A DNA stretch of 63,985 bases, filler included, from an uncultured Methanosarcinales archaeon (GTDB lineage Archaea > Nanobdellota > Nanobdellia > Woesearchaeales > CAZKBD01): NCBI GenBank assembly GCA_964550945.1. It is 7 parts of 7 records of this genome, joined end to end, with 100 filler letters (N's around TTAATTAATTAA, not from the genome) between each part and the next. Parts side by side here need not be neighbours in the genome. Positions count along the whole stretch, not along the records: positions 20,847 to 30,772 come from CAZKBD010000070.1; positions 30,873 to 40,771 come from CAZKBD010000071.1; 5 more parts are not named here. One strand, given 5' to 3'. Below are positions 30,001 to 33,000 of the stretch, piece after piece. Position numbers: made by a program. Numbering within the stretch: position 1 is the stretch's first letter; each line of letters begins with the position of its first letter.

Positions 30001-33000
30001 GTTGCCTTTGTTGAAAAAACAATGTCAGTAGGAACATAGCCTTGTGTAAGGTCACCATTTACTATAAATCCGATGTTAGCACCATGAAAATATTCAGATC
30101 CGTTATATCCTCTTGCAAATATTCCCCCTATTTTATCTGCATCATTTACTGCAGTTGGGGCATTTTTTGTTCCTCTGCCCTTATCAAATTTAATTATTCC
30201 TCCAACTGCTGTACTAAAATGTTCTGAAATAGTAAGCCCTCTTATTGCAGCTATTCCAGTCTCATCAGAAATATCTAGTTGAGTAGATGGGCGTGATGTT
30301 CCAATCCCTACTTTTCCAGAAGAATTAACAAACAGGAAAGTGTTGGAAGCGTTTGTTATGTTTAGTAGAGAGCCATTGCCTTGAATGTGGAGCTTGACTA
30401 AGGGGTTAGTTGTGCCTATTCCTACCTTTGTATTTATAGAAGAGTTATATAAGATATTATTGCCTGAAGCCCATGCTAAAGTATATCCAGTTTCTCCTCT
30501 GTCAACTTTCTTTCCTAATGTTGTGTTTAAAGTAGAGATGTTTGTTAAGAGGTTAGTTCTGTTTAAGTTGATTGAGCTTCTAATGTTAGTTGAGTTAGAG
30601 CTTATCTCTGCCCTTACTTTGGTGATGTTGTTATCTATTGAAGTTCTTGTATTAGTTATGTTTTGTGCTAATCCAATGTTTATCTCGTTTAATGCTGTTG
30701 AAGTTAATATTCCGCTTAATCCAGAGCCATCGCCATAGAAATTTGTTGCATTAACATCTCCATCAACAGCTANNNNNNNNNNNNNNNNNNNNNNNNNNNN
30801 NNNNNNNNNNNNNNNNTTAATTAATTAANNNNNNNNNNNNNNNNNNNNNNNNNNNNNNNNNNNNNNNNNNNNGTTAAAACCCCTTGAGCGTGCGCATTAG
30901 CGATTTCTGACATGTCAAAAAGAAGATTGGATTTCAGCCACCAGTTAAAAACTGGTGGAAAATTTCTGACATTTTAAAATAATAAATTATCACCAACTAA
31001 TTTTCTAAGCGAACAATACTTTGTATACGAGAACTCATTAATAGCTAGTTAACAGTTGATTATTTAGCAGCTAACTTTATGTCTTCTTCCAAGACGGTTT
31101 TTCTGCCGGAGTGCTTTGCAATTCTTGACGACTGTATTGCGATTCTTTCTGTAAGCTCCCTAATGGCTTCTGCAAATGCATCAACAGCTCCCTGAGAGAC
31201 CCTTTTAGCACCGGACTTAAGAAGAATCCTTGCGACTGGTGCTTTGGGTATTATAGTTATATTCCTTGCCATTAGAAAATGTCCCCTTAGTCTTTGTGGG
31301 CAATTACTAACAACGCTTGTTTATAAATCTTTCGATTTTAAAATAAAAATAGTAAAATTTATAAAGAGGTGGTCATACCTTGCCTTAATGCGTGAACAAT
31401 CCTTCTGTAGCTGAAAAACTATCACATAGTACTTTTTAGAACTATAGGGGGATTGCTATGGCATAAATCATCGAAAAATGCCCTGGTAGTGTAGTTGGTT
31501 TATCATGAAGCCCTGTCGATGATTTTAAATAAAAAAACAGCAAAAAGGCTTCGACCCGGGTTCAAAAACGTCTATTTTGGGCTTGGAAATCCCGGCCAGG
31601 GCGTAAATTGGCCGAATCTTCGGCCAATATGGGCCGGTAGCTCAGCCTGGTACTTACCAAGTGGGTAATAGAGCACCTGGGCATTAGTATTGCGGTGAAA
31701 CTTTTAATCAGGTGGTCGCGAGTTCGAAAAAAAAGCTCGAAAGTCTCGTCCGGCCCGCTTTTTAACATGAAGAAAAAAATATTCATAAAAGAGCATGTTT
31801 TGGTGCCAAAGCATGTAAAGTGCAGCGCAAAAGAAAAGGAAGAGCTGCTGAAAAAGTATAATATCACTATCAACGAACTACCTAAAATAAAAAAGAGTGA
31901 CCAAGCTATTTCGCAGCTGGATGCCAAGCCAGGTGATGTTATCAAGATAATCAGAAAAAGCCCAACAGCTGATGAAGCATTATTCTATAGGTGCGTAGTA
32001 AATGTATAAATACTCCAAAACTCTAATTAAAAAATATTTTGAAGAACAAAGTTTTGTTCAGGCTAATATTGAGAGCTTCAACAATTTCATGGAAAAGGAG
32101 CTTCAGGCAATTGTTGAAGAAAACAAAGAGATAATTCCTACAATAATTCCGCATAATGTTGATGATTTCAAGATAAGGTTTGATAAAATTTGGGTCACTA
32201 AGCCAGAGATCACTGAAGCAGACGGAAGCAAAAGGAAGATATTCCCCATTGAAGCCAGATTAAGGAAGATAACTTATGCTGCTCCTACATTTATTGAAGT
32301 TAGCGCCCATATAAATGATGTCCAGCGCGAATCATTCACAACACAGATCGCAAATTTGCCAATTATGCTAAAGAGCAAGTATTGCCATCTTAACAAATTA
32401 ACCAGGGAGGAGATTATCCAAAAAGGAGAAGATCCTGATGATCCTGGCGGCTACTTCATAATCAACGGCACAGAGAAGGTAATAATCAGCATCGAGGATT
32501 TGGCAGCGAACAAGCTATTGATTGACAAATCAGGTGTAGGAGAGTATAAAGCAAAACTATTTTCTGAGAGGGGATCTTTCAAAATTCCGCATACCCTTGA
32601 GAGGATGAAGGATGGCATTTTCTATTTGACATTCACAAGAGTGAAAAGAATCCCTATAGTGGTGATAATAAAAGCCCTTGGCTTACTGAAAGATGAAGAG
32701 ATAATAAGGGCGGTTTCAATAGACAGAACTTATGATGAGATGATTATCAACCTGATGGGCTCTGTTGAGATTAAATCACAGGATGAAGCACTTGACTATA
32801 TTGCTAAAAAGATTGGCATAACCCAGTCAAAAGAAGTCAGGACTGAGCGAATGAGGGAAATCCTTGACAAATACCTGTTGCCCCATCTTGGAATTGAAGC
32901 TAAGGATAGAATTTTCAAGGCTTATAACTTATGCAAAATGCTAAAGAAATACATCAAGGTTTCCAATGGTGAGCTTGAGCTGGATGACAAAGACCATTAT

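Follow-up and report, generated by a model that had tools for sequence, protein, structure and literature searches.

Probable introns at a shared T-loop site (59/60) account for tRNA genes that standard finders miss in a woesearchaeal genome

Sixteen loci with an interrupted T-loop in the genome of this uncultured archaeon (order Woesearchaeales) are very probably functional tRNA genes, each with a protein-spliced archaeal intron between positions 59 and 60 (59/60). They escape standard finders because a short intron splits each T-loop. A genome-wide survey's note had described such loci as hidden but real tRNA genes whose T-loops are interrupted at one constant place, in many cases together with introns elsewhere in the gene, and this core reading is supported here by complete cloverleaves, by an excess of pairing over chance and by orthologues. 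The anatomy of the genes, that excess, the exact presence or absence of the insert in orthologues and the presence of the enzyme genes were all established directly. Two of the genes lie in the window, by which we mean the whole 63,985-nt stretch of DNA analysed. The host appears to be a tiny groundwater archaeon, and the groundwater origin of the sequencing runs suggests a low-temperature habitat. Of the 20 sequencing runs listed, none is recorded as being of RNA.

The first window gene, a tRNA-Asp(GTC) gene with two introns (31480..31603, plus strand), was parsed by hand and by script, with three of four D stem pairs, a full anticodon stem (5/5) and the loop CTGTCG..A. Its acceptor is formed by 31480-31486 (5' strand) and 31596-31602 (3' strand), followed by the discriminator G (31603) with no encoded CCA, and ARAGORN names the gene Asp-GTC once the T-loop insert is deleted. 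The 34-nt anticodon region holds a 27-nt intron at the canonical 37/38 position (31519..31545, plus strand; ARAGORN i(40,27)), the central helix of which has three of four pairs; its border slides within a run of A residues and its motif is relaxed. T-loop positions 54-59 (TTCAAA; 31561..31566, plus strand) are followed by a 23-nt intron at 59/60 (31567..31589, plus strand). Positions 54-57 are the 5' strand of the central helix of a motif of the bulge-helix-bulge (BHB) type, in which TGGA (31584-31587) pairs with T54-A57 at all four positions; the 5' bulge contains A58 and A59, AA (31588-31589) and T60 (31590) make up the 3' bulge, and the T-stem forms a 5-bp outer helix. The unconstrained MFE of this isolated arm prefers another fold, which contains neither the central helix nor the T-stem. 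A 27-nt spacer separates this gene from the next (31604..31630, plus strand) and includes a perfect 8-bp hairpin, TTGGCCGA-atc-TTCGGCCAA, read by eye; spacer length is not conserved, since it ranges from 5 to 49 nt in relatives.

The second window gene, tRNA-Lys(TTT) (31631..31757, plus strand), has three introns, a D stem of 4/4, an anticodon stem of 5/5 and the mature loop CTTTTAA. Its acceptor strands lie at 31631-31637 and 31750-31756 (plus strand) with the discriminator G at 31757, and an oligo-T run (CTTTTT; 31758-31763, plus strand) follows directly. ARAGORN's Asn-ATT for this gene was rejected, as the gene reads Lys-TTT with a 20-nt intron at the non-canonical position 30/31 in the anticodon stem (31680..31699, plus strand). 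This intron was located by a blind BHB scan (x=49, y=69) with a central helix of 4/4, an outer helix of 4 bp and an inner helix of 3 bp, and its excision gives the stem CCTGA/TCAGG around the mature loop. The D region (31644..31670, plus strand) spans 27 nt where about 9-10 nt are expected, implying an insert of some 17-18 nt; the uninterrupted D-loop of one relative (L046), AGCCTGGTA, served for comparison, and when examined by hand neither possible border of this D-loop insert fitted strict BHB geometry. The 59/60 intron is 15 nt long (31729..31743, plus strand); its CGAA (31738-31741) pairs with T54-G57 (31723-31726) at all four positions beside a 5-bp T-stem, the 3' bulge is AG (31742-31743) plus T60 (31744), and the MFE of the arm includes both T-stem and central helix. 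The inner helix is reduced to a single base pair and is in effect absent, and the intron therefore takes the relaxed hBH or bulge-helix-loop form.

The two window T-loops thus read TTCAAA-(23 nt)-T for Asp and TTCGAA-(15 nt)-T for Lys, within cloverleaves obtained both by hand and by script. Both genes were missed by ARAGORN, by Rfam at gathering score and by Rfam at E≤10 over 31400-31800, the last of which gave just three weak hits, all in unrelated families, and no tRNA match, not even a partial one. The sole window tRNA detected by Rfam (RF00005, 49.4 bits) was tRNA-Gln(CTG) (50527..50617, plus strand), which has one anticodon-loop intron and an uninterrupted T-loop and served as an in-window comparison gene; the Pyl-CTA label given to it by ARAGORN with introns allowed is a mislabel by our parse.

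The whole genome was scanned with a frame consisting of T-stem, TTCRA, N59, an optional insert, N60, the complementary T-stem strand, a 7-bp acceptor and U8, with the sequence of the insert left unconstrained. This gave 44 matches: 13 uninterrupted genes, 15 distinct GC-rich interrupted genes (that on C31 twice, with alternative 5' ends) and 15 matches, mostly AT-rich, that were discarded as noise by eye. All 14 places legible in the survey's note were recovered, and C167:357-487(-) is also among the 15 interrupted genes of our scan. The range of insert lengths (15-110 nt), the 11 of 15 inserts that end exactly in GAAAG and the 13 of 15 genes that ARAGORN recognises after in silico removal of the insert came out as first reported, whereas the total of 15 rises to 16 with an additional tRNA-Trp gene (C81:1450-1622). 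All 16 parse as cloverleaves, including the two that ARAGORN did not call, Ala-GGC and Lys-CTT, which have three introns each; an 18-nt intron of the former shows the strict BHB motif. The gene on C167, which ARAGORN names Phe-GAA (a call listed in the survey's note), becomes Pro-CGG when a BHB-consistent 37/38 intron is removed, and its acceptor and T-stem match those of the other tRNA-Pro; tRNA-Phe is therefore still unfound in the genome, and it was absent from the results of both the T-arm scan and ARAGORN with introns. Position 59/60 was confirmed as a shared site, but not as the only one in the T-arm, since three genes carry introns at 53/54 (compared with 16 of 33 tRNA genes at 59/60); tRNA-Trp has both, and three introns in total. 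We count about 55 introns in the 33 genes, a figure that is approximate because three or four genes are mis-parsed: the automatic parser fails on both tRNA-Leu genes, on the unassigned gene C89:4727-4850 and on the Lys-TTT anticodon arm. ARAGORN with introns allowed reports 12 tRNA genes in the genome.

Free insert length could allow such a frame to pick up chance matches or decayed tRNA pseudogenes, and the bare number of matches with an insert is indeed not above chance, with 29 in the real genome against 51 in the reversed genome and 31, 18 and 21 in shuffled genomes; in addition, 15 of the 44 scan matches, mostly AT-rich, had to be discarded by eye. The one feature that beats chance is pairing of the insert end with the T-loop at all four positions, which the scan did not ask for: 14 such inserts were found genome-wide compared with 0, 0, 1 and 0 in the reversed and shuffled controls. 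The interrupted genes also have full cloverleaves with sensible anticodons and syntenic orthologues across the order Woesearchaeales, and no other genes were found for seven amino acids (His, Ala, Lys, Ile, Glu, Asp and Trp). An origin in chance or decay is consequently largely refuted as an explanation of the set, and we consider it very unlikely.

Across the order, the pattern GTTCRAA-N9-39-YGAAAGTC was searched in 121 genomes (the tallies include the unpublished G111 and G120, with no locus drawn from either) and gave 344 matches in 88 of them, with up to 13 per genome, while the backwards pattern gave 112 matches in 69 of the 121. Counted by genomes the control is lower, but not 'far lower' as the survey's note had put it; on the numbers of matches, about one-third of those across the order are expected by chance. 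Genomes with at least three matches numbered 53, compared with 8 for the backwards control. Of 30 matches inspected, drawn from 29 other genomes, 21 were framed by a full T-stem, acceptor and U8 and nine were not, and much of the order is probably affected in the same way.

The YGAA-AG end of the inserts is the 3' part of an archaeal BHB splice motif. The survey's note had described the insert end as complementary to the T-loop TTCRA; this holds for YGAA, which pairs with T54-R57 in a 4-bp central helix, and does not extend to the final two intron bases, which are bulged and unpaired. Intron positions n-5 to n-2 pair with T54-R57 at four of four positions in 13 of 15 inserts, at three in one and at two in another, with the 5-bp T-stem directly outside, and the tRNA-Trp insert likewise has four of four. 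The pairing covaries among the genes of this genome: of ten with A at R57, nine have T opposite it, and of six with G, four have C and one has T. A 3' bulge of two intron bases plus N60 and a 5-bp outer helix formed by the T-stem are present in all 16 genes. On the other side, a 3-nt 5' bulge that leads directly into an inner helix of at least 2 bp is present in only 4 of the 15 inserts (that of tRNA-Trp has one base pair, by eye), which leaves most of the motifs with a relaxed 5' side. Relaxed hBH and bulge-helix-loop forms have already been described (PMC3239211), and the other 59/60 inserts of this genome fit those, that of tRNA-Ala on C88 only with a one-base offset. In 12 of 16 genes, unconstrained MFE folding of the T-arm with its insert returned the T-stem and the central helix together with a 3' bulge of 3 nt; in the remaining four the central helix was lacking.

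Each precursor intron would thus end in the six bases Y-G-A-A-N-N, with the T-stem as outer helix and, where present, a hairpin internal to the intron as the second outer helix. The 3-nt bulge containing the 3' cut site would be formed by the two bases that end the intron (usually AG) and U60, and the bulge containing the 5' cut site by A58, A59 and the first intron base. EndA would cut both bulges and RtcB would ligate A59 to U60, which would restore the 7-nt T-loop UUCRAAU.

The junction had been left as either 58/59 or 59/60 in the survey's note; BHB geometry favours 59/60, and the same geometry reproduces the genome's own 37/38 site. Such motifs are cleaved after the second base of the bulge, a rule tested here only for internal consistency against the 37/38 introns. 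A blind scan for borders placed 59/60 among the top strict matches in 13 of 15 genes, other border pairs also passing in nearly every gene, and also recovered the canonical introns that these genes have at 37/38. Real introns joined at 58/59 instead, or removed by something other than EndA, make up a further reading to which we give very little weight. Where the first intron base is A, as in 7 of 16 genes by eye (both window genes included), sequence alone cannot tell 58/59 from 59/60, as the border may slide by one base with the product unchanged. In the other nine, however, that base is C or T, and a 58/59 junction would leave a T-loop ending R-A-G-U, whereas TTCRAN-T is the reading in 12 of the 13 genes that the scan found uninterrupted (TTCRAAT itself in 10) and in intron-free orthologues. 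The 59/60 borders also sit symmetrically two bases beyond the central helix on both strands, as they do at 37/38. As to the means of removal, group I and II introns far exceed 15-110 nt in size, and the inserts are far too short to belong to either group.

The argument against EndA concerns the enzyme itself. The genome has one EndA gene (C4:40347-40988), which passes both Pfam cut-offs (PF02778 and PF01974) and is the single match even at E≤10. Its product aligns to 1a79 (M. jannaschii) with the Tyr, His and Lys positions kept, which we take to be the catalytic triad. At about 175-190 amino acids, with a conserved core of about 175, it is of the alpha type, consisting of an N-terminal domain and a catalytic C-terminal one. 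EndA was found in 39 of 40 relatives, as one gene per genome (single-contig genomes included) and without a beta paralogue, and this gene architecture suggests a homotetrameric alpha4 enzyme. RtcB is present as a partial gene (C85:4-1080, 433 bits) that ends at the contig end. The C-terminal domain of EndA aligns without gaps to 1a79, as do the sequences of 24 relatives, in which the segment YDRG[VI]KPGEDHA[KR]W is constant in length; compared with the N. equitans alpha subunit (3iey_A) there is a 6-residue gap at the Lys-rich insertion, and compared with the S. tokodaii protein (2cv8) about 10 residues fewer in the N-terminal domain. If these gaps are equivalent to the published loops, this EndA would lack the broad-specificity loops of the crenarchaeal, ARMAN-2 and N. 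equitans types. A single alpha-type EndA is described as strict (PMC3239211; PMC5829648), which counts against EndA as the enzyme, given that most motifs here are relaxed. On the basis of the motif and the gene content, we nevertheless infer that cutting and joining take place at 59/60 and that EndA is the enzyme responsible.

Orthologues of the window tRNA-Asp gene were found at 18 of 19 relatives' loci. Thirteen are interrupted at exactly the same site by inserts of 19-168 nt that are unrelated by eye, and the other five are uninterrupted and read TTCRAA-T, which is the predicted spliced product. Orthologues of tRNA-Lys have either inserts of 13-83 nt at 59/60 or none. This rapid turnover of insert sequence is one of the observations that could be taken to indicate small mobile elements that settled in T-loops and are never removed, the tRNAs being dead or working with an enlarged T-loop while the cell uses host tRNAs. 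The lineage is regarded as symbiotic, and near-identical inserts occur in different tRNA genes of one genome, as in Trp and Glu of G087 and two Ser genes of G099; in the present genome a 49-nt stretch of the Lys-CTT insert is 90% identical to one in the Glu-TTC insert. Mobility is compatible with splicing, however, and a splice-competent end is kept in every insert while the remainder varies. An insert of 15-110 nt would wreck the T-loop, and EndA and RtcB are both retained, EndA throughout nearly all of the relatives sampled. Permanent elements of this kind are therefore very unlikely, if marginally less so than the other alternatives, and spliced introns remain our reading. BLAST of the 11 inserts of at least 30 nt (from the 15 genes) against the genome returned one match between introns, that of Lys-CTT with Glu-TTC, and zero copies outside tRNA genes. 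Separately, a motif search showed one related insert copy just upstream of tRNA-Gly(TCC). A duplicated 21-nt start also lies upstream of the same gene; its interpretation as the exon ahead of a D-loop intron of 100 nt was dismissed on manual inspection, since no BHB central helix forms.

T-loop introns of this kind are already known from related archaea, and the present genes add to them: 59/60 is listed among the non-canonical tRNA intron positions (PMC4090602), and a 13-nt intron at this site in ARMAN-2 pre-tRNA-Cys was cut in vitro (Fujishima et al. 2011, PMC3239211). ARMAN-2 shares with the present genome its DPANN affiliation, a highly disrupted tRNA set and the same site and motif, with the T-stem as outer helix and the relaxed hBH form seen in the window Lys-TTT intron; the double 53/54 and 59/60 arrangement described there is repeated here by tRNA-Trp. 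Its endonuclease, by contrast, is a three-unit epsilon2 enzyme with a specific loop, whereas a single alpha-type EndA is present here. Thermoproteales (Sugahara 2008 and Fujishima 2010, via PMC4090602) likewise have up to three introns per gene and use positions 30/31, 53/54 and 59/60, and the 'intron transposition' described for them (PMC4090602) resembles the similar introns found in different tRNA species of one genome. The intron density of Pyrobaculum calidifontis, with 71 introns in 46 genes (PMC8450103), is comparable to that of the present genome. Thermoproteales differ in belonging to another phylum, and here one site dominates the non-canonical introns and the habitat is presumably of low temperature. 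What is less ordinary in this genome is that nearly half of its 33 tRNA genes use 59/60, that introns so outnumber genes and that the Lys-rich insertion of N. equitans is missing from its sole EndA. In DPANN lineages, alpha4-type EndAs accompany more disrupted tRNA genes according to Kaneta et al. 2018 (PMC5829648), who ascribed the broad specificity of these enzymes to an 'L3' loop that N. equitans also has. That study analysed one Woesearchaeota genome with tRNAscan-SE 2.0 and took incomplete tRNA sets as a sign of unidentified disrupted genes in need of manual curation (PMC5829648), which is supplied here for one genome.

A tentative explanation, which we regard as possible but rather less than probable, is that 59/60 is a hot spot because it is the only site at which one intron end (YGAA plus two nucleotides) can build a splice-competent BHB motif with any tRNA, processed by a plain alpha-type EndA. 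The site would suit any tRNA because the T54-T55-C56-R57 partner and the T-stem are common to all tRNAs, which would leave intron RNAs free to enter further tRNA species, for instance by the EndA/RtcB reaction running in reverse and the product then being copied into DNA again. The predominance of 59/60 (16 of 33 genes) over 53/54 (three genes), where the partner sequence varies, points in this direction, as do the near-identical introns across tRNA species and the fast turnover at an orthologous site, although our evidence is silent on the direction and mechanism of spread. If so, an EndA without the published specificity loops would have had to acquire broad specificity by other means, perhaps through the Lys that is conserved in GVKPGEDH or through Lys-rich N-terminal tails. 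The order-wide combination of a single alpha-type EndA with mostly relaxed motifs offers a cheap test of the rule that links such loops to broad specificity. The presence, absence and replacement of inserts at one orthologous site across many families likewise provide material on the gain of archaeal tRNA introns, the mechanism of which is called unknown in a review (PMC4090602).

About half of the tRNA genes of this genome are invisible to ARAGORN and Rfam, and counts of 'missing tRNAs' therefore understate the decoding capacity of such genomes. The BHB models of tRNAscan-SE 2 were trained on introns from Crenarchaeota/Euryarchaeota and Thaumarchaeota (PMC8450103), so that it too may plausibly miss some of these genes. 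A 2026 preprint discusses missing Trp and Val tRNAs in the phylum as possible split genes; in the present genome tRNA-Trp is present, with its three introns.

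The window joins seven contigs by runs of N. Two interrupted tRNA genes stand in tandem in it, on contig C71 of the source genome (30872 is added to a contig position to obtain the window position). The first, tRNA-Asp(GTC) at 31480–31603, can be read as a cloverleaf (acceptor GCCCTGG/CCAGGGC; anticodon loop CTGTCG..A; T-stem CCGGG/CCCGG), its T-loop being spelled TTCAAA[23 nt]T; the second, tRNA-Lys(TTT) at 31631–31757, has acceptor GGGCCGG/CCGGCCC, T-stem GCGAG/CTCGT and a T-loop spelled TTCGAA[15 nt]T. ARAGORN made no tRNA call over the window, and Rfam returned a single tRNA match there at gathering score (50527–50617) and none within 31400–31800 at E ≤ 10. 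The match at 50527–50617 is a tRNA-Gln(CTG) with an anticodon-loop intron, labelled Pyl-CTA by ARAGORN when introns are allowed; other mislabels with this setting were tRNA-Arg(TCG) at C120:1607, called SeC, and tRNA-Leu at C5:47525, called Gly. The tandem genes are separated by a spacer (31604–31630) that is filled by a perfect 8-bp hairpin. An A/T-rich box, TAAAT, lies ~21–26 nt upstream of the mature tRNA-Lys 5' end; given its position, the tRNA-Lys leader could be very short or absent.

The genome-wide survey's note had claimed fifteen tRNA genes interrupted within the T-loop, and all 14 places readable there were re-found by an independent scan of the whole genome (frame: T-stem, TTCRA, N59, optional 8–150 nt insert, N60, pairing T-stem strand, and 7-nt acceptor strand with its paired 5' strand and a T after the latter). 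This gave 44 matches: 13 uninterrupted genes, 15 mostly AT-rich long-insert matches discarded as noise by eye, and 15 distinct, GC-rich interrupted genes, including an additional one at C167:357–487 (minus strand) and one on C31 listed twice with alternative 5' ends. The insert lengths (15–110 nt), the terminal GAAAG (11/15) and the calling of 13/15 genes by ARAGORN once inserts were removed in silico also held. A second scan, started from the 5' half (acceptor, U8 and D-arm motif), revealed one more gene interrupted at 59/60, the 16th: tRNA-Trp(CCA) at C81:1450–1622, which has a 53/54 insert too. It also revealed two genes, Gly-GCC (C42:12757–12891) and Ser-GGA (C148:4–143), with an insert at 53/54 but none at 59/60. 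Insert-bearing matches of the bare scan were not above chance, with 29 distinct in the real genome versus 51 after reversal of the sequence and 31, 18 and 21 in three block-shuffled versions of it. What sets the real genes apart from chance matches is pairing of T54–R57 (R57 being the purine at T-loop position 57) with the insert end, a feature not required by the scan: all four pairs with intron positions n-5 to n-2 were present in 14 real matches, versus 0, 0, 1 and 0 in the controls.

The archaeal bulge-helix-bulge (BHB) motif has a 4-bp helix with a 3-nt bulge on the 3' side of each strand; each bulge holds a splice site and is cut after its second base. This geometry agrees with the genome's own 37/38 introns, in which the helix strand is 32–35. 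At 59/60 the central helix would pair T54-T55-C56-R57 with Y-G-A-A of the insert end; the 5' bulge would comprise A58, A59 and intron base 1, the 3' bulge the intron's final two bases and T60, and the T-stem would form the outer helix. The insert end YGAA(AG) is conserved because the near-invariant T-loop imposes its sequence. All four central pairs are present in 13/15 inserts, three in C42:14040 and two in C88, whose fit to the BHB needs a one-base offset. A blind scan of every border pair placed the 59/60 borders among the top strict matches in 13/15 genes, and the unconstrained minimum free energy fold of the isolated arm contained T-stem, helix and 3-nt 3' bulge in 12/16, the window tRNA-Asp arm being one of the four with another preferred fold. 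Within the genome R57 covaries with its partner (A with T in 9/10; G with C in 4/6 and with T in 1/6). An inner helix of at least 2 bp directly after the 3-nt 5' bulge was found in only 4/15, and by eye also in tRNA-Trp; most motifs, that of the 15-nt Lys-TTT intron included, are therefore of the relaxed hBH or bulge-helix-loop form.

Synteny of the Asp-Lys pair holds throughout the order. In 19 loci fetched from relatives, all of other families, tRNA-Asp is present in 18: in 13 it is interrupted exactly at 59/60, by inserts of 19–168 nt that by eye look unrelated (helix pairs 4/4 in 10 and 3/4 in three), and in five it is uninterrupted and reads TTCRAA-T, the predicted ligation product. The gene after tRNA-Asp is interrupted at 59/60 in nine loci and uninterrupted in eight, three of these having other acceptor stems; the scan listed interrupted genes only at three or more helix pairs, such that weaker-paired inserts escape, and this filter lost 0/18 tRNA-Asp genes. 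Order-wide, with unpublished genomes G111 and G120 taken in, a pattern search gave 344 matches in 88/121 genomes versus 112 in 69 genomes for the backwards pattern, with at least three matches in 53 versus 8 genomes; a full tRNA frame surrounded 21 of 30 pattern matches inspected in 29 other genomes. The survey's observation is real and was read correctly. The introns would be removed by ordinary archaeal means, at an already published site, and this genome adds a striking dose of them.

A total of 33 tRNA genes was counted: 12 from ARAGORN with introns allowed, 16 with the 59/60 intron, two with the 53/54 insert only and another three with introns (Leu-GAG, Asn-GTT and Tyr-GTA). Only Thr-CGT and Cys-GCA are intron-free, and genes with 59/60 introns are the sole representatives for His, Ala, Lys, Ile, Glu, Asp and Trp. 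The C167 gene, labelled Phe-GAA by ARAGORN, forms a 4/4 BHB at 37/38 that gives Pro-CGG, and its acceptor and T-stem are those of the other tRNA-Pro; tRNA-Phe was therefore not found in the genome. At C89:4727–4850 (minus strand) good acceptor, D- and T-arms flank a middle without a fold found; the locus holds a 7-nt direct repeat, ATCCGCT, its ARAGORN label Met-CAT is unconvincing, and the gene may represent an isoacceptor otherwise missing. Position 33 is near-universally U. By the simplest splice, Val-GAC (C6:38519–38620) and Pro-GGG (C43:7597–7701) have C at 33, and tRNA-Ala(GGC) (C5:16987–17122) has U at 37; either the splice sites are other than read here or these are unusual tRNAs. The parser's intron total was 55, or ~50–55 after allowing for three or four mis-parsed genes (two Leu, C89:4727 and the anticodon arm of Lys-TTT). 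For comparison, among the complete genomes assessed in the tRNAscan-SE 2.0 paper the richest in introns has 71 in 46 genes, and the overall figure there is 0.21 introns per gene.

Sites 59/60, 30/31 and 53/54 are listed as non-canonical intron positions in a review (PMC4090602). For ARMAN-2, a 13-nt hBH intron at 59/60 of pre-tRNA-Cys is reported to be cut in vitro by the ARMAN-2 endonuclease, and pre-tRNA-Pro(GGG) to have introns at both 53/54 and 59/60 (PMC3239211). Kaneta et al. 2018 (PMC5829648), with one Woesearchaeota genome analysed, report that DPANN lineages rich in disrupted tRNAs have enzymes of the alpha4 type with an 'L3' loop, and state that incomplete DPANN tRNA sets imply disrupted genes still unidentified. 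In a 2026 preprint on the same phylum, tRNAscan-SE counts for complete genomes range over 26–54 tRNAs, and the possibility that missing Trp and Val tRNAs are split genes is discussed.

The genome has one gene for the tRNA splicing endonuclease EndA (C4:40347–40988), with no second match at E ≤ 10, and one for the RNA ligase RtcB, cut short by a contig end. Among solved structures, EndA is closest to the N. equitans alpha subunit (3iey_A, E 1.4e-33), relative to which it has a 6-residue gap where the Lys-rich insertion sits; its C-terminal domain aligns gap-free to M. jannaschii 1a79, and ~10 N-terminal-domain residues are absent relative to S. tokodaii 2cv8. A single EndA gene was found in 39 of 40 relatives, single-contig genomes among them, and no match in the 40th. 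In 24 relatives (loci L056–L083) the Tyr-to-His segment is of constant length and a conserved core of ~175 aa follows an N-terminal tail, Lys-rich in many, of 0 to ~70 residues and without sequence conservation; in the source genome EndA is likely translated from the second or third Met of its ORF, which leaves a tail of ~20 residues. An EndA facing these introns makes the genome interesting for enzymology as well.

Within this genome, the Lys-CTT and Glu-TTC introns share 90% identity over their 3' 49 nt. Relatives have near-identical 59/60 introns in genes with different acceptor stems: in Trp and Glu genes of G087, with paired changes in a hairpin by eye, in two Ser genes of G099 and in four genes of G027 (automatic anticodon calls here are rough). 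This resembles the intron transposition described for Thermoproteales (review PMC4090602). At C31:791–891 (minus strand), tRNA-Gly(TCC) has its first 21 nt (acceptor strand and D-arm start) in two copies 100 nt apart, and the 79 nt between the copies hold AGGG-N6-CCCTA-N-AGGTACC, also found in the T-loop intron of tRNA-Ile(TAT) (C42:14130–14152); it looks like a small folded element placed both inside and beside tRNA genes. The tRNA-Met (C5:18856–18978) and tRNA-Trp (C81:1450–1622) genes have long anticodon-loop introns with a short hairpin between CTGA/GATGA-like boxes, a C'/D'-type K-loop, and upstream of the box are bases complementary to the tRNA's own positions 30–35. Intron-guided 2'-O-methylation of tRNA-Trp is known from Euryarchaeota; as in that system, C34 is paired, by eye, with the base five positions upstream of the box. 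Several relatives' 59/60 introns, among the pattern matches, contain a hairpin in whose loop the T-loop sequence recurs (AAGG-TTCAAA-CCTT is one example), a miniature T-arm within a T-loop intron (G038:C1:214831–214872, G075:C27:13219–13260, G097:C1:213163–213207 and G066:C3:24011–24054).
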